Assembly: GCA_028717245.1 (NCBI GenBank) | Contig: JAQUOD010000002.1 | Span: 140,772 to 204,771, forward strand | DNA: 64,000 nt | Source: Candidatus Omnitrophota bacterium | Lineage (GTDB): Bacteria > Omnitrophota > Gorgyraeia > Gygaellales > Profunditerraquicolaceae | Direction: 5' to 3' | Shown here: positions 3 to 24,000 of the stretch, piece after piece | Position numbering within the stretch: position 1 is the stretch's first letter | Layout: every line of letters starts with the position of its first letter | Position numbers and translations under genes: made by a program | The notes under the pieces: model-generated | Told to the model about the DNA's origin: nothing | Database searches by the model: none | Seen by the model: the letters and a program-made list of their open reading frames with translations, nothing else

Positions 3-3000
3 AGGGGTATAAGGCTTGAAGAAGATTACCTGGCGGTATTATCTGAATTACATAAGTTACATTTCAGCGATTTTGATACCCAACTTTTTACTGTAGAAGG
101 AAAGCATTATCAGGCGCACGAGAAACTCGGCGCGCATGTCGTTAAGACAGGAGACTGCGCCATAGGTACTTATTTTGCGGTATGGGCTCCTAATGCCCTG
201 GAAGTTTCAGTGATAGGTGATTTTAATAAATGGAACCCAACATCAAATTATATGTACCGGGTGAATTCAAACGGTATATGGGCGCTGTTTATCCCGGGGG
301 TCAAAGAAGGCGATCTCTATAAGTTTTCCGTCAAAGGGTGTGACGAGGTAATCCGTAAAAAGATTGACCCTTATGCGTTCTTTAATCAGTTTCCTACTAA
401 TGAACATCAACTTAGTAATGCATCGATTGTCGGGAGTTTGGGTTATTCTTGGAAGGATGATGCCTGGGTTAATGAGCGTTTATCTAATCAGGGGCCTGAT
501 AAGCCCATTTCCATTTATGAAGTCCATCTGGGTTCCTGGCAGCGCAAAAAAGAAGATAATAGTTGGTTGACTTATAGAGAGTTAGCAGAAAAGCTCGCAG
601 AATATGTTAAGGATATGGGATTTACTCATGTAGAGCTTCTCCCTGTCAGCGAACATCTCTTTTACGGTTCATGGGGATACCAGACAAGCGGCTGCTTTGC
701 TCCCAGTTCACGTTACGGCACGCCCCAGGATTTTATGTACCTGGTTGATTATCTCCATCAGAAGGGGATAGGCGTCATTATTGACTGGGTGCCGGCGCAC
801 TTTCCCAAAGATGAAGCTGGACTTGTAGCATTCGATGGCACAGAATTATATTCTCATAAAAATCCTTTAGAAGGGGAACATCCTGATTGGGGTACGCGGA
901 TATTTAATTATGGGCGTGCCGAGGTAAAGAGCTTCCTTATCAGCAATGCTCTTTTCTGGCTTAAAGAATACCATATTGACGGGTTACGGGTAGACGCGGT
1001 GGCATCAATGTTGTACCGCGATTATGGACGTAAAGAAGGAGAGTGGATTCCTAATAAAGATGGCGGGAGAGAGAATTTTGAGGTAGTAGCGTTCTTGAAA
1101 GAGCTCAACGAAGTAACCCATAGAGAGTGTCCGGCTATCCTGACCATTGCTGAAGAATCTACTGACTGGCAGGGAGTTTCGCGTCCCACAGATGGGGGAG
1201 GTTTAGGGTTTTCTCTGAAATGGGCAATGGGATGGATGCATGATACGTTAGAATATTTTAGACACGACCCTATACATAGACAGTACCATCAAAAAGAATT
1301 GACTTTTTATCCTTGGTATGCTTTTTCTGAGAATTTTACTTTAGTTTTATCTCACGATGAGGTAGTGCATGGTAAAGGCTCATTAATAGAAAAGATGCCC
1401 GGAGATTACTGGCAGAAATTTGCCAATTTGAGATTGCTCTTAGGCTTGATGTTTGCTATGCCCGGGAAAAAACTTTTATTTATGGGGGATGAGATTGGGC
1501 AACATAGAGAGTGGAACCATGACGGAAGCGTTGATTGGTATGTTCTCGATAAAAAAGACGAACATTCAAATATGCATAGAGGCGTACAGAATCTCGTAAA
1601 AGCCTTGAACCAATTATATCAAAGCGAACCGGCGCTTCACCAGCGTGATTTTGAATCTTCCGGTTTTGAATGGATTGATTTTAAGGATGCCAAACAAAGC
1701 GTAATCAGTTTTATCCGTAGAGGCAACAACCCTGACGAATCTGTTGTGGTAGTTTTCAATATGACTCCCGAGCCGCGATATAATTACCATATCGGCGTTC
1801 CTTGCGGAGGAGTTTGGCGCGAAGTTCTTAACAGCGATGCTAACGAGTATGGCGGTAGCGGTATGGGTAATCATGGGGTAGTAGATGCCACAAGTGAGCC
1901 GATGCACAATCGCCCCTATTCTTTAAATCTTACCTTGCCGCCCTTGGGAATGCTTATATTAAAAGTTAATAACCAAGCCTCCTCCGCCACTACAAAAGTA
2001 CAGGAGGATTCAAGAACTCCCCAGGATAGATTTAGAGAATTTTTAGGGACCAAACCAGAAGAATTTAATCTATGCGAGGCCTTAAAGCGATTTGGATTGA
2101 GTTTGGAAGAAGGAGTTGGTATTTTACAAAAGGTAAAATATGATTTTGGCGAGTATCTTGAAGTTTTGGACGAGAACGGAAAGTCAACCGGAAGAATGAA
2201 ACAGAGAGGCGCCATCCATGAGCAAGGCGATTGGCACAGGACAGCGCATATAATTATTATAAATAAGAAGGGTGAGGTTTTGCTTGGAGTTAGAGGCAAA
2301 AAAGCGCATAGTTCCCAGGGCAAGATTGATATATCCTGCGCCGGCCACGTTGCCATAGAAGACGGCAGGGATACTGCTTTTGAAGAAATCAAAGGCGAAT
2401 TAGTGATAGATAAAAATGAATTGTCCGAATTATCTGTTATCGGGCAGGAGAACGGATTCAAGAAGATAGGCGCTCTGCAACAGGAAGAAAAGATTGATGC
2501 CTGCGGGGTTTATTATTACCGGACAGCCGGGATAAATAAAGAATTTTCTACTCTTTATGTTGCCATAACAGATCTAACTGCCGATGAGATTAACGCGAGA
2601 TTACGCAAGCAAGGGGAAAATCGCGCGGTCGAAACAGTTTACTATGCCAATATAGAAAAAGAAGTTAAAGATCCAAACAAAGACTACAGTATCTATAGCA
2701 GCACTTTTAAGCAATATTTCTTAAATAGGGCAATATTGGATAAGATAATTGTTTTCACTAACGACGGCTCAGCGGACACCGCCTTAGAACAAGCTAAACA
2801 TAAGGCGTGGGGAATATATATTGAAATAAGAAAGCAAAATAAAGTTACATTCAAAGATGGCCGTGAATTCGAGGCTTTCGCCCATCAGATAGCCAATGAG
2901 GTGGGTGTAGAATTTGGATTAGATGCGAATCAGATAATAAAAGTTGCCCTTTTCTTAACTACTGCTTTCTTCCCGGGATGGGGCGGCCTGCCGGCACCAA

Positions 3001-6000
3001 TGCCTAATCCATCATATAAGAGCTTAGGATCCCTTGATTATAAGAAGCTTGTAGAACAGGCCTTAGGCGCCGGCACGTCACTAGAAACATTCGAAGGTAT
3101 TATGGCAATTCTAGAAAAGTTTGGAGATAGAATGATACGGGCTTATATTTTAACATACGCCAAATCCAAGTTGTCTAATAATGGAAGGCTCGTTGTCCAG
3201 ATAAGGGCGGAGGAAATTATACGTGCCATGGAAGCGCCTCATAAAAATAATAACAATGGCTATTATAATAGGAGAAAGAGAGAAGAAGAACGGCAAAGAA
3301 AAATACCTGATGTTATCGATAAAAAGGGTCTTCTTAGCAGAATGGTTGGCCGGTTGAAGAAAGCAAGCCCCGAAGAAACAGCGCAGATAAAGAAAAAATT
3401 AATTGAAGCCAGCAAAGATGATGCGGATGCGGTTATCGGTCCTGTTGTCGGCGCCTTTGTTGATCCTGAAATAAAATGTGCCGAAGAAATCCTCTTTGGT
3501 ATCCTGGATACAACCAAAGACCCGGCTAAAGTTTTCAATCGTGTTGTCCGCGCCTTGCATGAACGCAAAACAGATTCGGGTAAAACCCTATACCTCTGGC
3601 AGGGGCAGTGGTATGAGCCTACTCCGGAGGAAGCATTACAGCGGATAAGGCGCTTAGAAGAGTTTATTCGAAAAGCTGGTAAGCAGCATCCGGTAGAGGC
3701 CGGCAATGCGCTTGTCGGCGCATTGGCTGATTCTGACCCGCAGGCAGTGCTTTCAGCAGAAGAACTTCTTTTGGGTATAACAGAAGTATTCCCGGGAACA
3801 ACTGACAGGCAGCGTATCGTTATTTTTCTTCACTCTGTTAGAGTAGCTTTGGCAATAAGAATATTTACGAAGATAGCTAAAGAAAAGCCGTCGGAAGTTA
3901 AAGACGTACTGACCAGAATTTTCGAGGATAGGCATAATTCAATAAAGGCCAGAAACAGCGCCTTTGAAATCTTAAAGGCATTGAATGAAACGTCCATTCC
4001 GGCTGGCGCGATGAATGGTGGAATAGGGCAACAGCCGGTTGGCGCAAGCAACCCTACTCCCTTCTCCCGCCCTGTCTCTAAGGAAGCCCAGGAGCAGGCA
4101 GAGAAACTCTATGGCAAGAACTGGACATCTAAAGCGTTTACCCTTGATGACCTCCGGAATAATATTCTTGTCCAGGGGCTGACTAAAGATAATGCAGAAG
4201 GATTAATAAAGCAGATAAATGAAGTATCAGAAAACATCACTAAGACAGGCCCTCCGGAAGATTTAGCTAAAACCAAGGAAGCCTTAACGCAAATAAGGTT
4301 CTATCTCTCCAATGACACGGAAAAACTTGAGAAATACCCTGGAACAGATCTTCCTAATGTTGCCTCTTCCATAATTGATTCAAAAGAGGTTTATCTACAC
4401 GTTATAGGTTACTGGCAACAGCCCGACCAGCAAACAATTCTCCACCACGAAATCAAAAGCCACATCGCTGACAATGAGGCGGATGAAACTAAGGCGATGA
4501 AGGATACGCAGAGGTACTACCCCAGAGTAGTAAAGATTGAACCTTCTATACTTGATGTATCAGACGAGGAATTTGAAACCAAGGTTCGCCAAGCAGTGCT
4601 TGCCGGAGCAGACCAGCTACATACTGATTGGACGGATATTGAATTTACAAAACGGCCAACTGATATAGAGAATCTTACATCCAAGGTTAGATTCCTTAAG
4701 AAAAATTTTAACTTGCCGGTAGATGCCCATTTAATGGTGGTGGTAGATAAGCCCGAAGAGAATACCTATATTAACGCGGCTATCAATGCCGGCGCGGATA
4801 TTATTATTGTGCATTTTAAGGACGCCCATCGGGATTTAGAGCACCTTAAAGAGACTATCGCATATATTAAGTCAAAAGGCCGTAAGGTGGGCATAGCGCT
4901 TAAAATACCCGAACCCATTAAGGAAATAAAAGAGATTCTTCCCCAGATTGACACGGTCCTCTTATTGGCAGTAGACCCGGGTTATGGCGGGAGCCCATTT
5001 GATATAAGCGTATTGGGTAAAATTAAGAAACTAAGAAAGTTTATAGATGCAAAACACTTGAAGGTTGAAATTCAGGTAGATGGCGGCATTAGGCCCGCGA
5101 TTGCCGAAATAGTTTTTGATGCCGGAGCGGATATTTTAATTTCTGGTTCCGCCATATTTAAAGCAGAGGATATTTGTCAGGCCATTACGAACTTAAGAAT
5201 CTATTCGTCTAGAGAGCGCCTGATACGATATTTACGCCGTTACAAACCGGGCGCGGCAATACCTCTTCAAGAGGTTTCCCGGGCCATAGGTATTACACTT
5301 CAACAGATAGAGCCGCTTTTAGACGCCATTATTGATGAGCAGCCCGGTAAGTATATAGTTAAAAGGCAGGATGGCGGATATGCAGTTCCTCGCGGTTTAG
5401 GTTGTGCCTCGCCGAGAGAATTTGAAAACTCTGATAAGCAGCTACCTTATCGTGTTTTTACCGGAAGATATGCCCGGTATACAAATGTGGATACGACACA
5501 ATTTGAGCAGATTATATTAGGGTTATTTAAAGTCAAGGCGTTATCTGAGTTATCCCGGGAAGTCCAAAGAGAAGTATGGCGATTTAAACAGGCTTTACCC
5601 GAAATAGAAGATGTCCATTTTCAGGCAAGGGGTACCGCCGATATTATGGGAGGCGTATTGAATTGTGAAATTTGGGATCCCATGGTACCCCCAATTTTAC
5701 ATAAATATCAGTTAAAAGCAAGGTTAATCCGGCGTGAAAAAATGAAAATTCCCAGATGGGCGCTTAATGATTACCATCAATATACAATTACCGAAGTAGG
5801 CGGGCACGAACTTATTGTTAATGTTACAGCTGACCAATATGAGTTTAAAGATAGCGGCGCATTTGGGGCAGCCGCATATTATGACTTGGGCGTGGTGGTT
5901 ATACCGATAGAGGCGTTAGAAGATGGAACTTTATTTATGTATGCAACAGGCTTTCCCCGCGAAATACCTATGGAGGGAGTAAAAATTTCTTCTGATCCGA

Positions 6001-9000
6001 AAGACCGGGTCCAAGAGATTAGTCCTAATCTTATTGGTCCGCTTAGCATCGAACAGCAAAGAGACATCGTTGATTATGTCCTGCAAGAGGCGCAGCCGCA
6101 GATATCTTTTGACCAGGTTATTCCAGTGCGGGAAAAACAGGCTTATAAAAAATTATTTGCCAGATACGAAGGATATAAAGCGAGATTAGAAATAGACCAG
6201 ACTGTCCCGCTACCTAAATATTATTATGTATATTATGCTAATAATCCGGTAGGTGGTTTAAGAGTAAATTTAGAAAGTAGAAGTATTGATTCTAAATGGT
6301 TTGATGTAGGCACAAAAGGCGTCTTCTGTAATGATTATCTTCCCGCAATAGCTACTACAGGAAGGTTTGTCCCTGAATATGTCTGTGTGCTTATGGCCTT
6401 GCCTTCAGATATTGAATCGGCTGTAAGGCCAGAGATATGGGAGGTAATAGAAAATAAAGGGAATAATATCATTTTTCGTAAGGATGTGCCTTTTGATTAT
6501 AACCAAATAATACTTATAATAGACGAAGAGCGCATAGGCCGGGATGAACTTAATCAATTAAAGGAGTTCGTCGATAAATATAAGCTAACCCTCATCAGCC
6601 TTCAAGAGGCACAATTGGAGGCAGAACTGCTTTTTGAAGCGCGCAAACTCTACGACCGTGCCAGTCTCATTGCAGAAGGAAGGTTAACCTTAGATGAAAT
6701 CAGGATTTATGACAGGCCGGATAATATGGTTGAGTTTTATGAAGATTTACGGCCCGGAGATATAGTAGCACTTACCGATAACGAAGCGTATAGAGAAGCA
6801 TTCAAATTAAAAGTTTACGGCTATATTACCGAAGAAAGAGGAGATAAGTATGTGAATTTCTATCACCATCGCCTGGGTAGAATGCAAAGGAAGAAAATTG
6901 ATATTCCCGATAAGGTCTTGGGGAGGGATTATTCTCCTTGGTTTGGCATATATGCTACGGAGTATAAAAGTTATGACCTTTATCTAATCCGGCCTACTAA
7001 CGTGGTAATTCCCCTTGAGTTTTTATCTTATCTACATTTTTATGAAATCCTTGCTTCTGAGGAATATTCCTTGAAATTAAGCTTAACCCCTAAGTTACCC
7101 AGTAAGGGCATAAACTATTTAGATACCCTGTTTTCTCTACCTGAAGAGACGATAAGTGTGGCCTTAGAGTATTATAAAGAGGCAATAAGGATTATGGCGC
7201 TTCCTGAGCCCGAAGAGTATATTTACCGCCTGAGTCGTGAGCCTACTCCTAAAAACGTACGATTGCTATTACAAATTACCCGGATAATTCTTTATGAAAA
7301 AAGCCCTGATTTAGTACCTCAGGAAGTTATAAGCATGCTTCACAATGTAGCTGAATATAAAATTAAAGAAATTCCGTTTAGCTATAGAGATTGGGCTAGA
7401 TACATATTAGAGGCAATTGAAGGCAGAAGAAATGGGGGTACTGCTGGCTTTATGGATGATTCACTTCAGCCCTCCCTCGTGGCAAAGTACATTAAGGATA
7501 TAAAATATACTCCCTTACGGCTACTCTTGCAAGTATTCTTCGCGCCTGCCATTGTCCCCCATGAAATTGCGCATCTGCTCAGGGCTATTAAAAGGAAAGA
7601 ATTAAAGGGATTCAGGCCAAGGCATCTACTGGAAGGCATCCCTATCTTAAAAACCGGCCTGCCCATCTTGAGACTAGAAGGCTGGATTACCAATATCGTA
7701 TTGGCCGCTATATCTCTCATAGTATTATGCCATGCCCCTGCCTTAATTATTATCTGGATATTTCTTACCAACTTATTTCTCACCATATTTGAGCCATTAT
7801 TAAGTTTCAAAAATAATGAAGGCGATTTTATTTCGGAAAAAAAGAAAGGGCTTTCGAATCCATTTATTGCCGGCTGCCTGTTGCTTTTTATTCCGGTGGT
7901 TTCCGGATTTATCATAAATTCATGCAGTATTTTAAATATCGAATCTTACTTTTTCATAATTGGTTTAGTTTTATTAGTTGCGATTCTGGCGATTTTCATT
8001 CTTAATTACCCGGATAAATGGTGGTCGGATTTTAATGCCCCCTCCGCCAGAGAACACAAAACCCTTAATTTATATAAGAAACGCATTATGGAAACGGTCT
8101 TGCATTGGGCTGAAATGTTATTGCTATCCGACCAAAGTCCGCTTGTAGTACGTGGTGCCATCACAGACTTATCTGACTTCGTTGTTGAAAATAAAAATGA
8201 AATCGAATCCTCAGAGTTTATTAAGCGTTTAATTGAAGAAGTAAAGGATTTAGGTTGGCTTACCTATAATGCCATGGTTTCCGCCTTAGAAAAATTAGGC
8301 GCTACCAAAGAAGAGTGGTTGGATTTTTGCGAGATTAAAAATGTAAAAAGCATAGATAAGCTTACTTACAACGCCATAAAAGGCCTATTAGTAAAGTTAG
8401 GCGCTAACGAAGAACAGATGGCATATTTTTATAATCAGGCAAAAGCGGTTGGTTCAGATGCGCAAACCCGTCAAGCCGCTGAAGGATCATTGATAGAGAT
8501 TATCAATTCAACTTCTAATAATGGATTATTGCTGAGATTATTATCGTTAAATGAAGGGGAGGATGATTTTAAAGTTAACCGGGCTATACGTAGGGCGCTG
8601 GATTTGTTAGCAGCCCAGGCAGTACTCAAGCGAGGGTATCCTGAAGGGGCCATACCAGCCATATCAGAAGAACTCAAGAAATTACTCTCTGAAATAGGCC
8701 CTTCTTTGAGCCAAGGTTTAAGGCTAGAGAATACTGAACTATTAAAGGAAAATCTCCGGAAATTATGCTCATTAATTACTGAGAAAGGCCATATAAATGT
8801 TAATTCTCCCAGCCCATTGATTAGGCTTCTGGTGACCAGCCTGAATAAGGAAGATGTCTTTAAAGTAATAGACCAGGCTGTCTCCATTGAGAAGAAACGG
8901 GAATTAAAAAAGATTCTGGTAAGCTGTGTTGCAGTTTCCCAACTAACTTATATCATCTTAGCCTTATTGGGTCTTGAGGTAAAAGGCGTTATTGCGCCTA

Positions 9001-12000
9001 TGCACGCTTTTACCTTAATCCCTCTTTCTGGTGGAAGGGTTTTATTTGTAGATTTTAGTCTCAAGCTGATTTTAGAGATAGATCTTCTAGAACATTATCA
9101 AGAAGAAGGAGAAGGCAAATACCTGGTTCTAAAACCAGAATACCGCATTACTCCTGAAAGATTACTTGAGCTTCAGAGGCAAAAAGAGCAAGGAATCTTT
9201 AGATACGATAGATTAACAGAAGAAGAACTATTTAGCCTCTTCTATTCTTATATACAGATAACCGATGGTTATGCCTTAACTTCTGCTATGTATAACAACC
9301 TCGGTAACACCTACGCTAAATTAGGCAGATATGCTGAGGCAATAGCAGAATATCAAGCGGCCTTAAGGCTCAATCCTAACTATGCTGCAGCCCACAACAA
9401 CCTCGGTGGCACATATTTTATATTAGGCCAGTATGCTGAGGCAATAGCAGAACATCAAGCGGCCTTAAGGCTCAATCCTAACTATGCTGCAGCCCACAAC
9501 AACCTCGGTCGGATCTACTTTGGATTAGGTAGATATCCTGAGGCAATTGACAGTTTGGCAAGAGCAGTTAACTTACGCCCAGAATTAATAGATAATCTTC
9601 GCAAGATAGAAAGCGTAAGGCAACTGGTAAAGGCGAGGGCAGAGGAGTTAGCTAAAGAAAACAATCATGGCCTTGCCTCCGCAGCCCAGGCAGCGATAGA
9701 GGAGGAGGATAACCCCAGCCGCACAGGAGAGTCCGAATCCCCCCAGCGTGGCGAGCGGGGAGATTTTACCAAAGAACAGATATTAAACATCCGCCAAAAA
9801 ACTATTGCCATTGCTGAAGGAAAAATGCAGATAGTGGAAATGCCCTGGGTAAATATGACTTTAAAGGAACGGCGCGATTCCTTCAAGGAGCGGCTCTCCA
9901 GAGAGGCTCCTGCCAGAGACCCGCCTTTAGCCGTTGGCCATATTGAAGTCCTGGCTGTTGCTGAAGAAGATAATTTCCGCGCCATGGCACTCGATATTAA
10001 CGGTGAGTGCGTCCTTCTCCTTACCAAAGAAACCTACCTAAAAGAATTTTCCGAAAAAACCCTCGACCACGAAGTATTGGAGTATTGCCTGGGTGACCAT
10101 AATAAAGCAGTAGCCTTAGTTAAGAAAGAAGAAAAAGAAGAAAACTTCATCCAGCGCCTAAAGCAAACCTTAGATAGCAGTGATATCCAGAATCTGCCCA
10201 AGGTATACCAGGCTTTGGATAAAGACCCGGAATTATTAAGCCTTAAGGCTGATCGTGCCAGGCAGCTATATAAACATTTTGATGATTTAGGTAATGAAGT
10301 ATATAACCAAGGCCGGGAAGAAGAGGCTATCTCCTGCTATAAGTTAGCTATCCTCTTTGCCAGGCGTGCCGGCGCCTTATTTGTGCACCGTAATGAAAAG
10401 CAGTGGATAGGCGATATCAGCCTTTTAGGAGGCAAGATCTCTAACTCTTTGGATATGATGACTGGGAATTTGGAGGTTCCGCCCTTCTTTGGGACAACCA
10501 GCGTCCTGCAGAAATACCTCTGGCTGTATAACCAGCTGTTGAAGCCGATGCGCGAGATTGCTTTTGACGTAGATGCCCAGTATGACGTGGATATCTCTAC
10601 TGCCGAGGGCCGGATGAAGGATATGGTTAACAACGCTAATTTTTCCGAGGACACAGCAGAGGCTATGTGGGAAGAATTAAAGGCCATTGCCGCTGCCGAG
10701 GGATTAGATCCGATCGAGCTTGTTGAATTTATCTTCAGAAGTTCGCAGGGTTTAGAGGATTTGCCGGGCATACCTTCTGCGGGTATCGGCGATAGCATTC
10801 CGGTGCTGGGCAGGATTGAAGATGCAATTAATGTATTTAAGCAGGTTGCCGGCTCCACTTACAATAAGCGGGCATTCCAGTACCGCGATAAGGTAGCTGT
10901 CTTCAGGTGGTTGATGTATGAAACGACCCTTAAGGATTTAGAATATCTGATAGAGACCATCGAAGAACTGAATAAAGAGGTTAAGCGATTTGAGGTTGCG
11001 GGCATCACCAGGGATATTGAGCCCATATTAAAGGATTTAAAAGAGAATATCTCGCCGATAAAACGCGAAAGAAAACAAATGTGTTATGTTTCCTCAAGGC
11101 GCATATTGGCATTATTAGAACTGGCCAAGGGACGTTATCCTGAGAGGCGTTTTCTTGTTCAGATGATTTCTTCCTTAGAAAAAATAAGGACAGAGAGCCT
11201 GGATCCGGTAAGGATCGGCGGCGGTATACAGGTGCAGTTGATGCGCTCCAGCGAAGTATCCTTTGTTGGTTTTACGGTGAACAAGATAACCGGTTGGACT
11301 GGTTTTAGCAATGGCCTGGCAATTGTGGATTTTGATGTAGCCTATGGCCGGGGGGAGAATATTGTCCAGGGCCGCATTATCACTGACCACTACAAGATAG
11401 CCATTAACCCTCAAACAAAAGCTGTGGTTATCCTGAATAAGACCTGCGGTTCTAAGATAGCTATGCTTAAGCGTGGTGAACCGGGGCAAAAGTATCTGGC
11501 CTGGAAGGATATAAAAAATGGCATTACCGAGGAGATTACTGCCCAGTTAGGAAAGGAATACAATATGGTTACTCCGGAAGAGATGCGCAATAAATTCGTC
11601 ATCTCTGATGAAGAGGCAAAAGACTTTGCCTTCAGGGCCTACAGGACGTACCAGGTGCATAATAGGAATAGGCCCCAAACACCCATTCCTGTAGATTTAG
11701 AGGCTTGCCTCTATCGTGATGCGCGAGGCAAGAGGCAGTATTCTATCGTGCAGAAGAGAGACTCTGCCTTAAGGAACGGTTTTGATTTTGAGGACCCGGA
11801 TATTCTGGAATTAGTGATGCGCGAGGTTGTTGCTTCTGATGCTGAAGAGGCCCAGGCAGAAGGCCGGCTGGTTGGCCGGGGTTTTGAGACGCTCAATGCT
11901 GCTGCGGGCACCTCTTTTTGGGTAGAAGAAATCTCCACAGAAAGGATAAGAACTGCTTTGCTCCAGATTTGGGAGGAAGGTAAAGACGAATCTGCGATTG

Positions 12001-15000
12001 AAGATTTAATCCCGGAAGGCTTCTCTCAACTGTCTGAAAAAGAGCTCCTGATTTTAAGTAAGAACCTAACGCAAAATAAGGGTTCTCTCTCTGAAGAAGA
12101 GCAGATCGCCTTGATTAAAGAGAAAAAGGCGGTTAAGGGGCTTTATGCAAAAGAGGAGCTTTCAACTTTAGTTAATCGTATAAGGAGGCTGCAGGAGTTG
12201 GCTGAATCAGGGATCCAGCAGGACTTTGATGTTGAAGGGCTGCAAAGAGAATTAGCCAAGGATACAGCCGGCATAATCAGTAAAGGAGAGCCTTTAAGTG
12301 AAACAGAAAGGCTGACCCGCAAAGTCTTGGTTGATGCTGCGATAACACAAACTAGTATAGAACGTATTATTCAGGGCATAGAAAAGCTCTATAAATTTGA
12401 GGCTGATGCTGACGGCAGGCTGAATTTATTCTCTTTAATCATCAGGTTGAATCTTTTCAGCAAACCCAAGGGAGATTTAAAGAGTGCCTCCCTGGAAGAA
12501 GAGACAGCTAAATTATCCCGCCAGCTTTTAGACCGGCAATTTGAGATAGTCAAGTCTTTTGATAATGTTATTCTGGTTGCGCCGGAGACCAACCCTAATT
12601 TTAATGATATTATGCAGTTGGTAGATACCAAGGGCGGCGCTACTGTCACCTTGCAGGGGGGCCCGGGAGCGCACGCGATTATTATTGCCACTCAGTTTGG
12701 TTATTGTGTAGTAGGCGGGGTACAATTTGCCGATCCTAAGATATTAGATAGGATCAGGAATGGCGAAAGGCTGCCCTTGACCGTAGACGGCAACAAGGGC
12801 CTTGTTTATTCAGGGAAGTTAGGTATTTCCGAGTTCTCTATCCTGAATCAGGTAAGCCGCTGGGGGAATTTCGGCAAAGAGATCGGATTGATTACTAATG
12901 CCACCAATGAATTAGAAAAGGCCGCAAAGCTTGCCAGGTACCAGGTCGTTGTCAACAAAGAAAGATATCCTTATATGCACGAGGATAAGGTAGGCGCCTA
13001 TATGGTCAGCTTGGACAGGATTGAGGAGATATTATTGCTTTTAGGTATTGACTTCAGGGCAGCATTTGCCTATGGCAGGCTACAGGCTTTAGAAAGAGGC
13101 GAGCTAAAGGAACTTGATTTAAACCAGCAGCAGCTAAATGATGTTGAGAAGATGCGCGCCAGAAAGGATGTCCAGGAGAAGATCAGAAACAAAATACCCG
13201 GCTTTGCTACGCCGGTTGAGTTCTTGCGCAAGTCCCTAAGTTACCACTTCTTACAGATGGTTTCGGTAACCCGGCCGGGCCAGATAGTTCAGGTCAGGGA
13301 AAGAGACTTTAAGAAAAGAGAAATTAATAAGACCCAGATTGGCGCTGAGCTCTATTATAACGATGAAGAAGCCTCTATGATTGGTGACCGCGGCAGCGGC
13401 CTTGAAGTAAGGGATGAGAATATCGAGGCGCTGGACCTTCAGCTTATGGCTGTCTCTGATGCCATAAAAGAGGCTAAAAAATTAGGCAATGTAGGAGATA
13501 TTGGCTTTATGTTTGTATTTAACCGCAAGATAGATGATTTTAAGAAGGCCCTGGGGAGAATAATTGATCTTTACGATAAAGGGATATTAGAAGAAGTGCC
13601 TAAGCAGGTAGGGGCGATGTTTGAACTAGGGATTAATGCCATATTGGCTGACCGGCTAATGCAGGCCCTGCTTGATTTCCAAAGAGAAATGCGTAAACGG
13701 GGAATAGAGCTAAAAGTTTACATCTCTCACGGCACAAATGACCAGACCCAGTCTGTTAAAGGCAGCAGGGATGAGGTCCGTTACATAGCTATAGATGCGT
13801 TCCTTCCTGGCGGAAAGAGAATAAAGGATATCCGCACCTTTTATGAGGGCGACAAAGGGTTGGTGGATAATGTAAAACATGGCAATGCCGTAGCAAGCAA
13901 AATGGGCGTTAAAAGTGGCCTTTGCGGTGAGGCGCAAAATAGCCTGATTACCCGCGGTAGCCCTGATGCCTTAGATGCCTGTTCAGACATAGCCAGCGGC
14001 CTTGATTCTGTTGGCGGCAGCGTGAAAAACTATTCCAAGCTGGTAAAATTATACGCGGATATGCAACTAAGCCGGCAGTCTATCCCTGAGGCAGTGATAA
14101 GGAGAGCAAAGGTTATTGCCAAGGGTATATCTTTGTTTAATAAAGGCGCTGATGTAAGAAGGGTTGTGTTTATCAGGGATTTGAATGATTTATTTAAAGA
14201 GCATATTATCTTAAGAGATGGCGCAAAACGTAAAGAGACGCGTAAGATCTCCAGGGTAGTGGAAGGGGATATTATGATTGTTGCCAGCGGCATTAACAGC
14301 GATAATCCGGACTTCCTTAAAGCCTTAAATCGCCGCGATGGCTATGCCAGCGGCATGGTTATTACAGGGCAGATAGAAGACAACAGCCCTCTCCTTTACA
14401 AGGCGAGGCAGTTAGGCATACCCACCATGCTCGTAGAAGAGGATTTATTTAATAATAAATTAAAGGATGGCCGGGAATGTGCTTTTGATTTCCAGCGCGG
14501 CCTGATCTGTGAGGTTGAGGGCATCAGTTTTGATATTGCGCCTCTGGTTGACGACACAGCTTACACGACTATAAATTGGAGCGCAGAACCGGCCACAATT
14601 AATACGAAATCTTTCTCTATGGATGAGATATACCGGGAAATAGGCCTGCATCCTTTGGCATTACTGCTCTATGCTTATCATACCGGCGAAATCCCCAACC
14701 CCCTCATAGAAACACGGCCTGACGGTGTTCAGGTAACCAAACTTGACCTTATCTTCTCGCAGCATAAAATACCTCTTCCTCGAGAAAAGCTCCCGGAAGT
14801 CTATGCTGATGTAAAAGAGCGCCTCAAGGATTATCAGGTAACCAGCGTAAGAGAATTATTAACCAAAGTATTCCTGGCACAATGCAATGCCGCTAAAGAA
14901 TCATTAGGTAAAGATACCCGTTTGGTATTTGAAACCTCTAAAGCTGATGTCTGGTTTTTTGAGACGCTTAAATGGGGTAAGCGCGAGACTGAACTTGAGC

Positions 15001-18000
15001 TGAATGTATTTAACGTGCCCATAGACTTAAGGGGCCTCTTAAAGACTATCTCTCTTGGCTATGGTGATTTGTTTAATATCTTCCTTGAGTTGGTTCAAGA
15101 GCAGCGCGAGGAAGGCAATGATATCGCCATCCAGCTGGATTATGTCCAGGACCCCGAGAAACTGGATTTGGCCTTAGAGTTCCTTAAATATTACGGCCTT
15201 ACCTCTAATATAGGTATGGAAATAGCCACTACCCATAACTTCGTCCGCGCAGCGGATTACTTTACTAAAAGCAGGCTGATTGAATTTGTAAGTTTTAATG
15301 ATGACCTTTTACTGATGAACTTTGCCTTAGCTAATTTAGACCATCATACTGATGTCCTGCTCTGGACCGGCCAGATGGTTCCCCTTATTGACAAGAATGA
15401 AAAAGATTTCCAGGATGCTTTAAAGATAGCCAGGGCAATGGTCAAGACAGCTATGGTAGATAGAGGAATATTATCAGCTCTGCCTGTTGAAGTTCCGAAG
15501 CGGAATAAGGAAGAGGGTGGTCAAACTAAAACTAATAAAAACCTCTCCAAAGGACTGACTCCAAAGGATGAAATTCCTATCAGGCAGGCAATAGAGTTAG
15601 CTTTTGCGCAAGGAAGAGTAGAGGAACCGAGCCAGAGAATGAAAGAAGTTTTTTGTCAGTATGCGCAAGATTTGCGCAAGCGAAGAGAGGAGGGCTCGGC
15701 GAGATTGCTGGAGAGGGCAGAATTTAGATTGGTTGAGCAGCCGAAATCAGAAATCAAATCCCGTTCCCCGCCTTATTGCCTCTGGTATAAATCCCCCGAG
15801 AAATTTCTCGTAGCTTGTGTCTATGAATATGAAGGAAATAAAATCATCCTCCTGCCTTCTTATTTAGTAGAACTCCTCCTATACCACAAAGAAATAGATT
15901 TACTTATCCGGATTTTATCCCACGAAGCAAGGCATATCTATAGGCCTTTTACATCAGATCAAGAACACAATCAAGATGTAGAAGATATACTTATTAAGTT
16001 AGAAGAATTAGAGAAGAGGCTAAAAGTCATAAGCCCGGATTATCAAGGCGGACTTTTAGAGATAATTTCAGGGCAGAGCCGCCTTATCCAGGCAGCGCCT
16101 GAAGGCCGCGCAGGAGAAGAGCTGGCCGTAATACTGGCAAACACCCTGTTAAACAAAGAAGCCACATTTAGAGCGCGAAAAGAAGCAGCAGAGGGATTAG
16201 CTAAGTTAGACCCTCAAATTACATTATCTGTTTTTAGAGCAGTATTAAGCGATGGGTTCACGGCCTCGCCTTTATGCCAGATATTAATTGAGCTTACGGC
16301 AGGGATTGGCAGCGCCGAGGCGGTTGAATTAATCATAGATGTATTAAATCATAGCAGTTGCCTGTTGGTTAGAAAAGAGGCAATTTTGTTGCTGGAGAGG
16401 TTTAATGATGAGAGGATTTATCCGGCGCTATTGCCTTTTCTTAAAACAGGAGGCGATATTCTCTTTGAAACCGCCGCGGGTGTGCTTTACGCGTATAAAA
16501 AGAAGAATCCAGCAGCATTTAGAGAGTTGGAGGAAAACAGTTTTAGTATTGTCTTCCTAAATCATCCTAATCCGGGTTATATGGATGCCCGTCAGTTACT
16601 TACCGAAACAGAAAGGGTTTTAGAGAGTGTGGGACTGTCCTTCTTTTTGAGTAATGGGCGCGAATACAGGTTTGATTATGTAAGGTCCATATTCATAGAT
16701 TTAGGATTTGAGATAACAGCGCAATATTTTGGCAGGGATATACCCGCCAGCTATCCGTTAGCAGCAACCGCAGGCCAAATAATTGAACTATACGGCCGAG
16801 AGGAACTTTATCTGATAGTTGCCAGAAAAAATGGACTGCCGCATCGCCTCGCACCTTTAAAAGTGCAGGATGCTCAACCTTCCGTGGCTGGTGGGGGGCA
16901 TTTAGGCGGTGCGGCAGTTATTTCGGCTCAAGGGCCGTTCTTTGACAATGGTGGAGGCGTTAATAAAACAGCCGAAACCTTAGAAAACCCCGGACCCTTA
17001 AGTTTAGAGTCAAAGGTAAAAAAATATGCCATAGATTTATGCTCTATTGATGAGGCCGTCCACTCCGGGGCATTAAGAGCCCTGGTGGAGATGGGAAGCA
17101 TAGCTGTTCCTTACCTGATTAAGATATTAAGAGATACTGACTGGTATCATGAGAATAACTTTCACATCCGCTTATATGTAAAAGAGGCCTTAGAAAAGAT
17201 TGGCTCACCGGCTATCCTTTACCTGATTGAGGCATTAGAAGACAGCCACAGCGATGTCCGCTCTGACGCAGCCGACGTCTTAGAAAAACTCCATGCCTTA
17301 ACCGTAGAATTAAAGATGAAAAGATACATTGTAGATTTAAGCGATAATGACAGCAGTGTCCGTGCCCAAGCAGCTGAAGCTATGGGTGATATGGGCCTGC
17401 CTGCCGTTCTCCTCTACCTGATGAAGGCGCTAAAAGATAGTGATATTTATGTCTGTTACAAAGCAGCCGAAGCCTTAGGAAAAATCGGGCCTGCGGCTGC
17501 ACCAGCTGTTTCTGCGTTGATTGAGGCCTTAAAAGCAAAAGAGAAGGAGTATAGTTGGTATCTGCGTTCCTACGCAGCCCAAGCTTTAGGAGAAATCGGC
17601 ATAGCCTCTATGCCTGTTATCGATGCCTTGACGGAAGCCGTAGAAGATAGTAACAGCGATGTCCGCGCCAAGGCCTGCACAGCCTTAGAAAAACTCAATG
17701 CCTTAACCGTAGAATTAAAGATAAAAAGATACATTTTGGATTTACGCGATAATATCTCCGGTTCAGCCCAAGCTTTAGGAGAAATCGGACTCCCGGCTCT
17801 CTTCGCTTTAGTTGAGGTATTAGAAGATAAAAATCTTAACAGCAATGTCCGTGCCCGGGCAGTTGAAGCCATAGGGTATATGGGCCCGCCTGCTGTCCAC
17901 TACCTGAAGAAGGCATTAAAAGATAGTGACGCGAATGTCTATTACAAAGCAGCCGAAGCCTTAGGAAAAATCGGGCCTGCGGCTGCATCTGCTGTCCGCC

Positions 18001-21000
18001 GGCTGGTTAAGTTATTAAAAGCAAAAAATATTTACTGGGCTATCCGTTCCTACGCAGCCCAAGCCTTAGGAGAAATCGGCATAGCCTCTATGCCTGTTAT
18101 CGATGCCTTGACGGAAGCCGTAGAAGATAGTAACAGCGATGTCCGCGCCAAGGCCTGCACAGCCTTAGAAAAACTCAATGCCTTAACCGTAGAATTAAAG
18201 ATAAAAAGATACATTCTGGATTTAGGCGATATTGACCCATATACCCGTTCCTACGCAGCCGAGGCCTTAGGGGAAATCGGGCCTGCGGCCGCGCCAGCAA
18301 TCCTTCATCTGATTAAGTTATTAGGAGATAGCCATAGCGATGTTTACTATAGAGTAGTCAAAGCCTTAGGAAAAATCGGGCTGCCGGCTGTGCTTGCTTT
18401 AATCGGGATTTTAGAAGATAGAAGTAAAGACAGCAATAGCCGCGGCCAAGCAGCCAAAGCCTTGGGAGAAATCGGCCTACCAATAGCCGCACCCGCTCTC
18501 CCTTACCTGATTAAGGCATTAGAAGATAGTGACAGCAATGTCTCTTCTAAAGCTGCTGAGGCCCTGCTAAAAATCGGACTACCAGTTAAAACCGCGTCCT
18601 CCACTTTGCTTAAGATAGCAGAAGATAGCCATATTGATAGCGATGTCCGCTCAAGGGCCGCTGACGCCTTAATAAAAATGGGCCTTTTTAGAGGGGTTAC
18701 TTATAGCGTATCCTCTATAAATAATCTTTTATCCCATGTTACCTTAGGAGGCAAATTGTATGCCGGCGAAGACCCGGACAGGTTTATTTTTAATCCTACC
18801 ATATCTGCCCAAGAATTAGCCGGTCAGATAAAAGCAAAGATAAGCAAAAGAGGCGAACTGCAGGTGTCCGTAGGTTTTGATACAGGAGAAGGCATCTACA
18901 AACACCGGGCTAAGTTTATTGCTCTCGCTTTATTCATTGCCTCTACTAACCTTAAGAATAAGAATTTCCGGGCATTAAAGAGCGTTACCCCAAGAGATCC
19001 CGATGCAGCCTGTGGCCTTATTATTAGAGGCAAAAATGTAAGTCCGGTAAACGAGATTAACGTTCAGGAGCACCGCATTGACTATATCTTGCAAATATCC
19101 AAAGATATAACCAAAGAAAACCTGGCCTATTTTATTTCCTTTATCCAGTACCTTAACTTAGGGCTTCTGCTTACTGTTGCTCACAGGAGCTATGCCCGGT
19201 TAATGGATAAAGGGTTTCCCGGGATACCTCCCCAACACCTCGCCATTATTGAGGCATACGAAGGCTTTGAAGCGGCTCTGGTGAAGCTCTTGAGAAGATA
19301 CGATTCTTTGGTTAGCCCTGATTCGATCAGAGAGATAGAAGACCAAGAAGAAGAACACAAGGAGAGGGTGCAGGCCTTATTAAAATACCTGTTAGAAGAG
19401 TGCCTCTGGCCGGATAAGATATGGTTAGTGGACTTACACCAGAAGGATACCTCCTGGAATATCCTCTTACCTTACTTAAGAGCCCCTGAGGCAGTCTTCT
19501 TACACCGGGAAGCAGAAGAGGGCGAGCTGCCTATAGGCGATAAATTTATCCGGGAGGCCCGCCAGCTCCTCTTTAATAAGGCCCTTGAGATTAAGGATAT
19601 CTTGGAAGTAAAGAGAAGCCTCTCTAGTTATCCCGCCAGTTTAAGCCCGGAGAGAGACCCCTTCCTGGATTTAGCTTATCCTGAACAGAGCGCCAGATAC
19701 GCTAAGGCAATGAAGTCTTTAATCGCACGAGGGAGATTTAACGAAAATATGCTCTCTGTTGCGCCTGCATGGATTGAATCTTTTGTTCCGGAAGAGAAAC
19801 TCTCTTGGGATAACGGCGGCTCTCCTGAAATTGCCCCGTATAATACTAGAAAGGAAACTACTCCCAGAAGAGAGCCTGCAGAGGTACCCGAGAGAGTTGC
19901 CCCTCGGCCTAAGCCTCAGCCCCTGCCTCAACCTCAAAAGGAACCAGCTACTCCAAAAATACCTGAAAAAGTGAGGGTTCCGTTTCTCAACAAGAGCCTT
20001 TCTTATTCACCACCTCAGACAATTAAATTCATCTTCCTGCATGAAAATAGTATTTTATCTCCGGCCCATAGTATACCTGTTCAGATAGAAAAAGCCTTGC
20101 CTCTTAAAATTATTTCTCCCGAAGGCCTCTTCTTACGAAAATTCAATTTAAAGGCAATTAGGAAAAATCAATACCTTGTGGATGACTTATATGGATTAGC
20201 ACAAAAAATTAAATCCGCATCCGGGGAAGAGATAATCTTCTTAATTACAGACGCAGATATTACGGGTTATCGCGATGGCGAGTTACGCCGGTATCTTTTT
20301 GGCCGCAGCTGGCCCGAAGACAAAGTTACAGTTATGTCCGTAAACCGCCCGTATTCACCCGATGAAAAGCTTTACGGGGAGCGTATCCTAAAGAATGCCC
20401 TGCACGAATTAGGGCATGCATTCGGCCTTAGGCATTGCGATAACCCCGGATGCGTAATGCAATTCTCCGAGACGGTAGAGGCCTTAGATAAAACAGGCTT
20501 AGAATTCTGCCCTTCTTGCAGAAGCAGGCTGGCATCTCCTCAGTTAATTGCAGCCTCTTTCGACAATGGCGGAACATCTCTTATTTTTCACGCCAAACGT
20601 AAGCCCGGGTTTACCAAAAACCAAGTAAACAGAGAGATAAGAAAGATACTAAAATCAGAACTCAAGGGATGGCAGGCGGCGGGTATGGATGAGCCTTATG
20701 TAATAGCTGCTTTAAGGCATTTTATTCTGAAAGGCGAGCAGGCCCAGTTATTTGAAATGCTTGTTAATGCAGGAAGGCTTATGAGAGGAGAGGCAAAAAC
20801 CTTTTTTGGGAATACGATAACCTACCAGGGCAATAAATATATGCCTATAGCCGATGATGACCCTGATCCTGCTTCGACCATAGTGCACGAAATGGAACAC
20901 CTCTCGGGAGTTATTGATGAAGGCAAATGCGTGCAAGCAGAAAAAGAATTCAGGGAGCGTAGGGATATGGTTGCCTATGGGTATCCGGCGCATAAACATT

Positions 21001-24000
21001 TTAAAGACAGAAGTTTTATAGGCCATGGGTTAATGCGGAGTATGATAATAGACCTTAGCGCGAAATTCAGCAGTATAGATAGGCTTGTTGCCGGCCCATC
21101 CTTAAAGAAAATTATGATTATTGCTTCGGATACGCCTTATGCGCCGATTTATATCTCAAGTATTTTACAAAGTAAATTAGGTAAGGGTATTGAGGAAATA
21201 TCGCTATTGTCTGAATACCGCTACTTAGGATTAAAAGGAGAAGAGTGCCTCAGCGAATTTATTAACCAGATTAGAGCAGCAGACCTTTGGGATTTACCCC
21301 AGCAGATACAAGGTATTTATCAGGGGTTAGAGAGTAGAATACCCGCGATGTTAGCGAAAAGTAAGATTAGTTTTGTGACGCAGGCTGCTAAAGGCGAATT
21401 TGATTTTGTATTTATGCCAGCCTCGCCCGCGCCGCAAGAGTTAGAGAAGGTCAAGGCAGCCCTACGTGAAGGAGGCATATTCGCAGAAGATAGCGGGACG
21501 GATATCTGCCTATTTAAGAAAGCCAAGGGAGAGCTAGTTAACGTCTATCACATAAATGAAAAACCAGACTACAAGAATAAATTGACCCTTTGGGATTTAC
21601 GCAATACTCCTAATGCCTGGTTAGGGGCAGAGAATGTCATGGTGGATGTTGAGAATAAATGGCTTAATAAATTAAGTTTTGAATTAGAATCGGTTTTTGC
21701 TGCCGAAAGGCCTGAGAGGGCATCACATCACGGTCTGTCACATTCTTCGCGGATGTGGGAGAAAGCCAAGATTCTGATTGAGCGGCTCAGATTAAATGTG
21801 GATATTGAAGTTTTAATTGCGGCGGTATTCTTACATGATATAGCCACAGCTTATAGCGATGAGCCACAACATGGAGAAATCAGCGCGCAAAAGGCTGAGC
21901 CAATCTTAAGAAAAATCGGGTTCCCCGAGGAAAAGATACTCGCTGTCTTAGAAGCAATTAGGCTGCACGATGCTTACGAGGCAAAGAGGCAAACGCCAGA
22001 GGCTAAGATTTTATTTGATGTTGACGAAATTGATGCTTTCGGCGTAATAGGTATCTGGAGATATCTGATGATTTATTATGACCGTGGCTGGGACTTAAAC
22101 CGGATGGCCACTCATATAGTTAATAATATCCAAGTAAGATTTAATAATTTGCATTTCGCAGAATCCCGCTCTATGTGTAAAGTGGATTATGAGTATGCTT
22201 TAGGATATTTTGAAAAACTATGCGCAGAACTAAAGTCCGGCTATGATATACAAAGCCCATTCGGAGCAGTCGGTATTTATAATCTCCTTGTTCAATATAA
22301 AACCTCTTCCTTTAAAGATACGCCCGCTTTAGCAAACAAGGAGCTTTCAAGTGAATTTAATACGTTAAGCCCAGAAAAGCAAGAAGCAAATAGGGACGGT
22401 TTTACTTTCGCTGTGGAATATCTTGACAGATTTTTAAAAAATAATGCAGGATCCGTAAATGCTACAGCTTTATCTTATGCTGAAGACGGCGCGCCTAAGA
22501 AGAGATCCGAAGACCAGCGAGGCTCTTTAGCAGGTACGTCACCTAAAATTATTATTGCGATCGCACTGGCTGCGGTTGGCGCCACACTCGCCGCCGTTTT
22601 CCTGCCGGGCTACGAGAAAGAAATCGCCGTCATAGCGCCCCTGCTTATGTTGCTGGGGATAATAAAATCAAGGAATTTTATTCTCAAAGAAGATTTTCGA
22701 TCCATTAATATCGGCGCACAGATAAATTCTTCAATATCCGCGTTCATCTGGCAGCTCATTAGCAAACACCTTAAGAATATCGATGAAAAACAGGAACTTG
22801 AATTACTGGAGAAGCTGGACAGCTTCATCGACAACCTTGTGAAATTGAATATTATTATGATTGGCGGCATGGGTAGCGGAACGCACTCAGTACCAATTAA
22901 TATTCATAACATAGTTATCGTTGATATTCGCGCCTTGCAAATGGACACTTTTGGAAACTTCAGGGTAGCCCTGAGCAATGGACAGAGTGCTGAAGACCTT
23001 ACGGTCCTGCAGAAGATAATGAGAAAGCTCTTAGATATTCAGGACAAGGTCGAACTGCTTAAGTACAAATGCATGCTGGAGGCGCCTATTTTACTTACTG
23101 GCCGCGGCAGAATCGAAGAAGATATGATCGAATACGAATCTGAACAGGCAATTGCTCAACTGGTAGAATCATTTATCGATGTTGAATATCCTGTCATGCT
23201 TATCCATGAACTGAGATATCTTTATTTCCTTATCGATTCCTGGAAAGGTTCTACGAACAAGGCAAGCACCGGGAAATCTATCCTGGCTCTTTTGGCAAAA
23301 CTGGAACAGGAAATTAAGCAAAAACTGCAAACGGTGGCTAACAAAGAAAACCGGGCTTTGACAATTCAAGATCAGGATATGCCCATCGGTATGAAAAAAG
23401 ATCTTGAACAGGCGCTGGTTGAACTTTACAAACTAAAGGAATTAGCTGAAAATCTGAAGGTTGAGCAGCCTTCCACCATTGAAACCGGCATCAAAAATGA
23501 TCTTCCGAAGATCTTGATAGGTAGAATGTTCAATGTCATCAGTTCGCTGAAAGAACGTTTCCGTATTAGCCCCTATGCATCATCCAAAGAAGAAGCCGCG
23601 GGAAAAATTATTGATTACTCAAACGATAACAGGCAGGATATACTTTCAAAACTCGACGATCTGGATCGGTCAATTAATATACTGGCGAGTGCCGGGGCGG
23701 ACGATAATTTTGTTTTATCTGAACATCTGGCAGATCTCACGCGGCAATTAAGTGAAACGTTCATTACGGCAATGGCTCTGCACAACCTGGAAAAAGCTCT
23801 GAGGGCCATTGAAGGAATCTTCAGAAAGATTATTACCCTTGAAGAAAAGGCGCGGAAACTGGGAAAAGACAGGGATACAACAAGGTTTGCTCCTAATGTA
23901 GATATTATCAGCAATATCGACAACCTCCTGCCGCTAATCGATCATCCGATAGTAATGGTGGGCATCCTGGATTATTTTAACCGGTATGTTGCCTTTAACC

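Follow-up and report, generated by a model that had tools for sequence, protein, structure and literature searches.

A phosphoenolpyruvate synthase-like unit with a degenerate swivel–barrel duplicate in a giant Omnitrophota protein

A PEP synthase-like unit inside a giant reading frame

The window analysed here (the whole 64,000-nucleotide (nt) stretch of the Candidatus Omnitrophota contig JAQUOD010000002.1) is spanned by a single giant open reading frame (ORF) that contains a unit of ~1,800 amino acids (aa) related to phosphoenolpyruvate (PEP) synthase. The plus-strand frame that begins with nt 3 is free of stop codons over all 64,000 nt (nt 3–63998; 21,332 codons, both ends open) and is therefore the coding frame; in the other frames every open stretch is shorter than 300 codons. 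Because the frame runs off both ends of the window, the gene must be longer than 64 kb. The unit comprises an ATP-grasp nucleotide-binding domain, a swivelling phosphohistidine domain (S1) and a PEP/pyruvate-binding TIM barrel (B1), followed by a second, degenerate swivel-like domain (S2) and barrel (B2). Coordinates are collected in Table 1; amino acid n corresponds to nt 3n to 3n + 2 throughout. We consider it likely that the unit is a complete PEP synthase-type (pyruvate, water dikinase-like) enzyme module within the giant protein.

A previous reading of this DNA, made from its sequence only, had proposed that the giant protein holds a phosphotransfer unit derived from pyruvate, phosphate dikinase (PPDK), PEP synthase or Enzyme I, and hidden Markov model (HMM), profile–profile and fold evidence all agree with that proposal. 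Similarity to the PEP-utilizing family, on which it depended, was found with Pfam, NCBIfam, the PDB and Foldseek; in particular, the suggested search with PF00391 and PF02896 gave scores above the Pfam cut-offs for S1 (PEP-utilizers, cut-off 23.1 bits) and for B1 (PEP-utilizers_C, cut-off 22.8 bits). The three motifs that had been singled out all lie exactly where they were placed in the nt-3 plus-strand frame: GGPGAHAIIIATQFGYCVVGG begins at aa 4219 (nt 12657), GTNDQTQ at aa 4577 (nt 13731) and LCGE at aa 4640 (nt 13920). The swivel does keep its phospho-acceptor histidine, as claimed: His4224 (nt 12672–12674) sits in a GGxxxH motif and is retained in 20 of the 20 covering sequences among 23 aligned. 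The barrel motifs were correctly read, and describing them as diverged was an overstatement, because the variation falls at non-catalytic positions while Asn, Asp and Cys are all preserved; the four closest related loci (L001–L004, described below) have M or L in place of the Q of GTNDQTQ, and LCGE appears as SCGE or LCGQ.

B1 covers positions 388–753 of the NCBIfam profile PRK06464 and carries a residue set consisting of Arg4339, Glu4341, Arg4463, Glu4541, Asn4579, Asp4580, Arg4589 and Cys4641. The canonical counterparts are found in the motifs GLARLEF (Arg4339 and Glu4341), NPMLGFRG (Arg4463), MMCEIPS (Glu4541), GTND (Asn4579 and Asp4580) and DRD (Arg4589), and we take the B1 residues to map to Arg561, Arg617, Glu745, Asn768, Asp769 and Cys831 of Clostridium PPDK and to Enzyme I. 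Together with His4224, these eight residues are invariant in every covering sequence of the alignment (23 sequences, 21–74% identity). An AlphaFold2 model of aa 4180–5165 has a mean pLDDT of 88.8 and a pTM of 0.87, with B1 mostly above 90 and S1 lower (68–85). Foldseek comparison of this model with the PDB returned the Neisseria PEP synthase 2OLS (2.8e-13), many PPDKs (~1e-12) and Enzyme I (~1e-8; 3e-8).

An ATP-grasp domain, which the sequence-only reading had suggested might be sought between nt 9600 and 12600, is present there, its PPDK_N match exceeding the Pfam cut-off of 27 bits. In hhalign the N-terminal half of the unit aligned to 13 canonical PEP synthases over their positions 3–473 (Prob 99.8%, E 1.4e-29). 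Lys3478, Arg3579, Glu3900, Gln3917 and Arg3919 fall on the canonical GGK, RSS, DIEW and QAR motifs and are identical in the four closest orthologues. The domain contains an insertion of ~100 aa, and a linker insertion of ~235 aa joins it to S1. This linker is not present in canonical PEP synthase, is 35–65% identical among orthologues, lacks aa ~4005–4043 in L002–L004, and gave no hit in a Pfam scan. Since an ATP-grasp domain lies upstream of the swivel and barrel, the unit is more than a phosphohistidine module and can be read as a complete PEP synthase-type enzyme.

The family assignment points consistently toward PEP synthase. The NCBIfam PEP synthase model PRK06464 matched the unit with E 1.3e-44 and the PPDK model with E 2.4e-11; in bits, the PEP synthase models scored 152.5 and 133.9 and the PPDK model TIGR01828 scored 42.4 (cut-off 843). 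TIGR01828 is thus not the best match, the PEP synthase models scoring 3–4 times higher. The best PDB sequence match is 2OLS (E 4e-18) and the top three are all PEP synthases, with PPDK at 5.8e-5. A canonical 796-aa PEP synthase (P0002) aligned to the unit by phmmer in four colinear blocks over all three domains (E 1.7e-25), and the domain order (ATP-grasp, swivel with its His, PEP/pyruvate TIM barrel) is that of the canonical enzyme. The unit therefore contains each of the elements that define a PEP-utilizing dikinase: a PPDK_N ATP-grasp, a swivel with the phospho-acceptor His, and a C-terminal barrel with the ligand set and the Cys. Judged by these comparisons the unit is a diverged relative of PEP synthase, and not an equivalog by the NCBI criterion.

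A degenerate second swivel and barrel

The sequence-only reading had also noticed a second, His-less swivel-like stretch near nt 14330–14450 and had suggested a duplicated, inactivated swivel. The stretch lies inside S2 as delimited by profile comparison and structure prediction. The degenerate duplicate is real, and the suggestion fell short in its extent, as the duplication takes in a barrel in addition to the swivel (aa 4745–5160).

A single-sequence search of aa 4701–5200 against Pfam and the PDB gave nothing meaningful (DRTGG 0.042, Not1 0.13). A jackhmmer search on a small local set merged the two copies, and its E-values were not used (tiny database, possible drift); it was replaced by hhalign on orthologue-only profiles and by a PDB profile search. 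A profile built from the second copies of seven orthologues aligned to canonical PEP synthases with Prob 98.3% and E 2e-14 over 348 columns, from PEP synthase position 378 (the start of the swivel) to 749 of 796, just before the catalytic-Cys strand. A profile of 21 second copies (A3) matched PDB entries 8A8E (6.4e-36), 9DAE (1.1e-30) and 2OLS (1.7e-29), spanning both swivel and barrel. An AlphaFold2 model of aa 4730–5165 alone (pLDDT 83.3) found 2OLS (8.3e-10) in Foldseek, next 9DAE (1.5e-9) and 8A8E, which are isolated PEP-binding domains, followed by PPDKs and Enzyme I.

The hhalign alignment pairs S2 (EGDIMIV...ASGMVITGQIEDNSPLLYKARQLGIP) with the canonical swivel (gdILV...AaAIVT..GGRTcHAAIvARELGIP). 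The position of the phospho-acceptor His is occupied by Pro4796 (nt 14388–14390), and the corresponding column of the family holds P, A, T, V, S, E, L or I, never His. In B2 the equivalents of two Arg residues, the Glu, the Asn-Asp pair and the third Arg vary freely in the family, the Cys strand is absent, and almost no invariant polar residues able to form a site remain. By profile alignment and predicted fold, S2–B2 is a degenerate and presumably catalytically dead duplicate of the swivel and barrel. Identity among orthologues is 46–77% for B2, 52–74% for B1 and 35–69% for S2; the dead barrel thus matches the active one in conservation, S2 falls somewhat behind, and the duplicate appears to remain under strong purifying selection.

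A homologue search with aa 4180–5180 returned two matches and an exhaustive search of representatives returned 70. A second barrel, with or without S2, occurs in about 25 of these 70 representative clusters; the named ones belong to Candidatus Omnitrophota and bear the labels 'hypothetical', 'PEP-utilizing enzyme', 'phosphoenolpyruvate synthase' or 'pyruvate, water dikinase', and one is a 'Desulforudis' PEP synthase. The swivel–barrel duplicate is a trait conserved across a family of Omnitrophota proteins and not peculiar to the window.

Relatives of the unit and the architecture of the giant protein

The ~1,800-aa unit recurs as one conserved block at 10 further near-full loci, four of which (L001–L004) came from a scan of GTDB genomes. 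In BLASTP comparisons, the ORFs of these four match the window protein in a single block that begins at aa 3379, 3460 or 3519 and ends at aa 5156 or 5191 (41–74% identity). After aa 5160, identity among orthologues falls to 0–30%. In the closest relative, L001, homology ends at aa 5156 and the next segment matches aa 10746–10932 of the window protein, so that the unit acts like a module that can move. The segments concerned are aa 1644–1828 of the L001 ORF (matching window aa 10746–10932) and aa 2633–2763 (matching window aa 3242–3374), at ~31% identity. That neighbours of the unit in L001 resemble distant parts of the window protein indicates probable shuffling of modules between giant genes.

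The domains fused to the unit differ among relatives. In L001 the same ORF continues after the unit (aa 1912–3824; locus nt ~5738–11474) with a second PPDK_N domain and then a complete pyruvate:ferredoxin oxidoreductase (PFOR) set of Fer4, TPP_enzyme_C, POR, POR_N and PFOR_II domains. In L003, from an Omnitrophota metagenome-assembled genome (MAG) and with an ORF open at both ends, triosephosphate isomerase and a GlpX-type fructose bisphosphatase (FBPase) lie upstream of the unit and phosphoglycerate kinase (PGK) lies downstream. All of these partners, together with the enolase, phosphoglycerate mutase, ribulose-phosphate 3-epimerase and glycogen branching enzyme on the window polypeptide, handle pyruvate, PEP or nearby intermediates, which argues for genuine pyruvate/PEP interconversion and not for a new substrate.

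The unit is also held by free-standing ORFs of 2,276–2,610 aa, in L002, L004 and six JGI metagenome contigs. These orthologues extend 400–750 aa past B2 in a region that gave no Pfam hit and has no similarity to the window, and one of them (P0003, 2,276 aa) has a weak third match to a partial barrel profile at aa 1871–1935. Among the neighbours of the L002 copy are genes for a ROK-family kinase and for a B12-radical SAM protein. Named relatives of the unit come almost entirely from Candidatus Omnitrophota MAGs, with three loci labelled uncultured Planctomycetia or Planctomycetales. An exact-match search of metagenome contigs with 44 nt of DNA gave no match.

Outside the unit, Pfam and NCBIfam searches show the giant ORF to be a mosaic of glycogen branching enzyme (GlgB), ribulose-phosphate 3-epimerase (RPE), TPR, HEAT, M54, HD, enolase, cofactor-independent phosphoglycerate mutase (iPGM), GNAT, CheR, methyltransferase, HAD, GerE and MBL domains (Table 1). 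GlgB scores 938 bits, exceeding the NCBIfam equivalog cut-off of 741. The M54 peptidase domain may have a bearing on whether the giant protein processes itself. Helix-turn-helix domains of DNA-binding type also lie inside this apparently membrane-anchored protein, at least four times as GerE/LuxR and additionally as an XRE-type HTH_3. A Kyte-Doolittle hydropathy scan gave 33 transmembrane-like peaks, mostly paired, with no strong segment between aa 2667 and 7509. Closely spaced hydrophobic pairs divide the protein into blocks of enzyme domains, and a hydrophobic triple (aa 2565–2649) separates the GlgB/RPE block from the PEP synthase block. An antisense ORF (nt 10337–10858, minus strand, 173 aa, GTG start) inside the ATP-grasp coding region was treated as probably spurious.

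The frame thus has the features of known giant proteins: a single ORF of many thousand codons, interspersed transmembrane segments, and a mosaic of enzymes and repeats. We conclude that it is an Omnitrophota-type multi-enzyme protein, 21,332 aa or more in length and membrane-anchored as judged from hydropathy.

Table 1. Coordinates of the PEP synthase-like unit, other domains of the giant frame, and free-standing orthologues
Feature	Nucleotides	Amino acids	Strand	Evidence or remark
Whole PEP synthase-like unit	10137..15497	3379-5165	+	One block in BLASTP against related loci
ATP-grasp nucleotide-binding domain	10398..11837	3466-3945	+	Pfam PPDK_N, 93.7 bits, E 1.7e-26
~100-aa insertion within ATP-grasp	10908-11207	3636-3735	+	
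~235-aa linker insertion, ATP-grasp to swivel	11838..12542	3946-4180	+	Unaligned in hhalign
Swivel (phosphohistidine) domain S1	12543..12827	4181-4275	+	Pfam PEP-utilizers, 38.3 bits, E 1e-9
Catalytic PEP/pyruvate TIM barrel B1 (predicted)	12978..14102	4326-4700	+	Pfam PEP-utilizers_C, 25.6 bits, E 8.5e-6
Degenerate swivel-like domain S2	14235..14537	4745-4845	+	hhalign to canonical swivel
Degenerate barrel B2	14538..15482	4846-5160	+	Stops directly ahead of where the catalytic Cys strand would lie
Glycogen branching enzyme GlgB, full-length	87-1964	29-654	+	CBM48, alpha-amylase and C-terminal domain
Ribulose-phosphate 3-epimerase RPE	4533-5159	1511-1719	+	166 bits, at subfamily cut-off
Archaemetzincin-type peptidase M54 domain	20109-20531	6703-6843		Downstream of HEAT-repeat block
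HD phosphohydrolase domain	21735-22037	7245-7345		Downstream of HEAT-repeat block
Enolase barrel	27951-28628	9317-9542	+	75 bits, well under equivalog cut-off
iPGM	29784-31028	9928-10342	+	173 bits, well under equivalog cut-off
Helix-turn-helix sites	~42828-42953 and others; 59643-59789	14276-14317 and others; 19881-19929; ~20967-21021	+	
Transmembrane-like segments	7695-8003 (first cluster)	2565-2667; pairs 7509/7543, 8101/8146, 9010/9044, 10356/10389, 10875/10896, 11582/11607, others		
Free-standing orthologues (in their own loci)	L002 7409-15241; L004 7409-14239; L005-L010			

Catalytic activity, alternative explanations and metabolic context

Among known systems the unit most resembles PpsA (pyruvate, water dikinase; 2OLS, 8A8E, 9DAE), which is its best sequence, profile and fold match. 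The same three domains occur in the same order, and the phospho-His, the Arg/Arg/Glu/Asn-Asp/Arg ligand set and the catalytic Cys of PpsA are all kept. The two differ in that the unit is just ~17–26% identical to PpsA, carries the ~100-aa and ~235-aa insertions and an appended degenerate swivel and barrel, and forms part of a chain longer than 21,000 aa, whereas PpsA is a free protein of ~790 aa. PPDK and Enzyme I of the phosphotransferase system (PTS) resemble the unit in the mechanism of a swivelling phospho-His and in having a homologous barrel for PEP; Enzyme I has no ATP-grasp domain, with an HPr-binding subdomain in its place. Glucan, water dikinase and rifampin phosphotransferase also use ATP-grasp and swivel phospho-His chemistry, but to our knowledge have no PEP-binding barrel, whereas the unit has two, one of them catalytically intact.

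The residues retained in the unit suggest how it might work. ATP held in the ATP-grasp domain would phosphorylate His4224, S1 would then rotate toward B1, and the phosphoryl group would pass to pyruvate enolate, with Mg2+ on Glu4541 and Asp4580 and Cys4641 as proton shuttle, yielding PEP. The reverse direction, making ATP from PEP, would be equally possible; in anaerobes, both PEP synthase and PPDK can operate in the glycolytic direction. Judged by its conserved residues, the unit is apparently an active pyruvate-to-PEP enzyme, and it probably feeds or drains adjacent domains on the polypeptide (enolase, phosphoglycerate mutase, ribulose-phosphate epimerase and glycogen branching enzyme). S2–B2 is the product of a duplication after which the His, all catalytic residues of the barrel and the Cys strand were lost. 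PEP-utilizing enzymes dimerise or oligomerise through the PEP-binding barrel, and PDB entries 8A8E and 9DAE are multimeric C-terminal domains. S2–B2 could then be a non-catalytic structural partner of B1, forming an intramolecular pseudo-dimer that would replace the barrel-to-barrel dimerisation of the free enzymes and let the module work as a single tethered unit. The high pTM of the four-domain model is compatible with a fixed packing of B1 against B2.

The unit might instead be a PPDK. The N-terminal Pfam family is named PPDK_N and earlier surveys label such domains 'PPDK' from it, Foldseek matches to PPDKs are nearly as good as that to 2OLS, and West-Roberts et al. speak of pyruvate-diphosphate kinase domains (bioRxiv 10.1101/2023.11.21.568195). 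We rejected this identity on the NCBIfam scores, and consider it improbable given also that the three top PDB sequence matches are PEP synthases with PPDK far behind, that the N-terminal half runs end to end with PEP synthase 3–473, and that relatives are annotated 'phosphoenolpyruvate synthase' or 'pyruvate, water dikinase'. A role in phosphorylating some acceptor other than pyruvate, whether a glucan (compare glucan, water dikinase), a small molecule (compare rifampin phosphotransferase) or a protein (compare Enzyme I), is suggested by the full GlgB with its CBM48 on the same polypeptide, by the strong divergence and large insertions of the module, and by the possibility in principle that the degenerate B2 gained a new ligand site. 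Against it, the barrel has the full set of PEP, pyruvate and Mg2+ residues and the catalytic Cys, all invariant, the fusion partners in relatives handle pyruvate and triose-phosphate, and B2 is nearly devoid of invariant polar residues from which a site could be built. We regard such an acceptor as very improbable, and a role like that of glucan, water dikinase or rifampin phosphotransferase was rejected because of the intact PEP barrel.

It is likewise quite improbable that the unit is a relic, a purely structural pseudo-enzyme, or an effector with its site of action outside the cell or inside prey, although several observations lean that way: half of the unit, S2–B2, is demonstrably dead, the enolase and iPGM of the same protein score well under their family cut-offs, and most domains of Omnitrophota giants are predicted to be extracellular and the giants are linked to predation, according to two preprints (bioRxiv 10.1101/2023.11.21.568195; 10.64898/2026.06.07.730766). 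Full invariance of nine catalytic residues at 21–74% identity is not expected of a relic, and decay was rejected for that reason. As to an effector, the unit is also encoded by ordinary free-standing genes that show nothing suggestive of export, an ATP-dependent enzyme would be without substrate outside the cell, and the absence of strong transmembrane segments between aa 2667 and 7509, together with the mostly paired arrangement of later ones, would keep the domains on one side of the membrane.

Several points weigh against the view that the unit is a PEP synthase-type enzyme. The scores miss the equivalog cut-offs of NF005057 and TIGR01418 (152.5 versus 598 and 133.9 versus 739.75 bits), the unit holds ~335 aa of insertions, and the canonical Asn of NPMLGxRG is Ala in the unit (EEASMIGDRG). 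The pseudo-dimer role proposed for S2–B2 is drawn from conservation and the high pTM. Membrane topology was estimated from hydropathy only, and many domains of such giants are, in both preprints, predicted to lie outside the cell, where no ATP would be available (10.1101/2023.11.21.568195; 10.64898/2026.06.07.730766).

A broader picture, which we hold to be doubtful, combines several of these elements. S2–B2, as an in-cis pseudo-dimer partner, would make an enzyme that is usually a dimer or oligomer into a self-sufficient monomeric cassette, and such cassettes would be strung by transmembrane hairpins into a covalently tethered, membrane-anchored pathway leading from pyruvate toward glycogen. 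In this 'metabolon on a string', which remains similarly doubtful, whole-enzyme modules would be shuffled between giant and free-standing genes. Its cassettes, equally tentatively, would be the PEP synthase, enolase, iPGM, RPE and GlgB here, and PFOR, triosephosphate isomerase, FBPase and PGK in relatives.

That a PEP synthase/PPDK-type domain occurs in an Omnitrophota giant protein is already known. PPDK-type domains are described as frequent in these giants, some of which are called 'Archaeovorins', by West-Roberts et al. 2023 (bioRxiv 10.1101/2023.11.21.568195); 'multi-enzyme metabolic cluster' giants are a class defined in a 2026 preprint (bioRxiv 10.64898/2026.06.07.730766). Omnitrophota giants have, like the window ORF, transmembrane segments, TPR and HEAT repeats, methyltransferases, and GNAT, HAD and central-carbon domains, and PPDK_N is counted among their 20 commonest domains. 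These papers treat the domain at the Pfam level only, and the passages searched leave undescribed the ~1,800-aa unit, its intact catalytic set, its free-standing orthologues and the dead duplicate. Nothing relevant turned up in literature searches on Omnitrophota with PEP synthase or on PEP-utilizing domains that are duplicated or pseudo-enzymatic. In the literature searched, the ~1,800-aa unit, its active site, its occurrence in both free-standing and embedded form, and the swivel–barrel duplicate appear not to have been described.

The present analysis turns a Pfam-level statement, that giants contain PPDK domains, into a defined unit with precise boundaries, an intact active site and expressible free-standing orthologues. 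The unit thereby offers a tractable way to ask whether the enzyme domains of giant proteins from uncultivated lineages are active, and S2–B2 provides a clean case of a pseudo-enzyme domain kept beside its active parent. If S2–B2 does replace an intermolecular dimer, this would account for the way in which an oligomeric enzyme fits within one tethered polypeptide chain. The PFOR, triosephosphate isomerase, FBPase, PGK, enolase, iPGM and GlgB partners argue that the giants carry real central-carbon metabolism, which bears on the purpose of these proteins.

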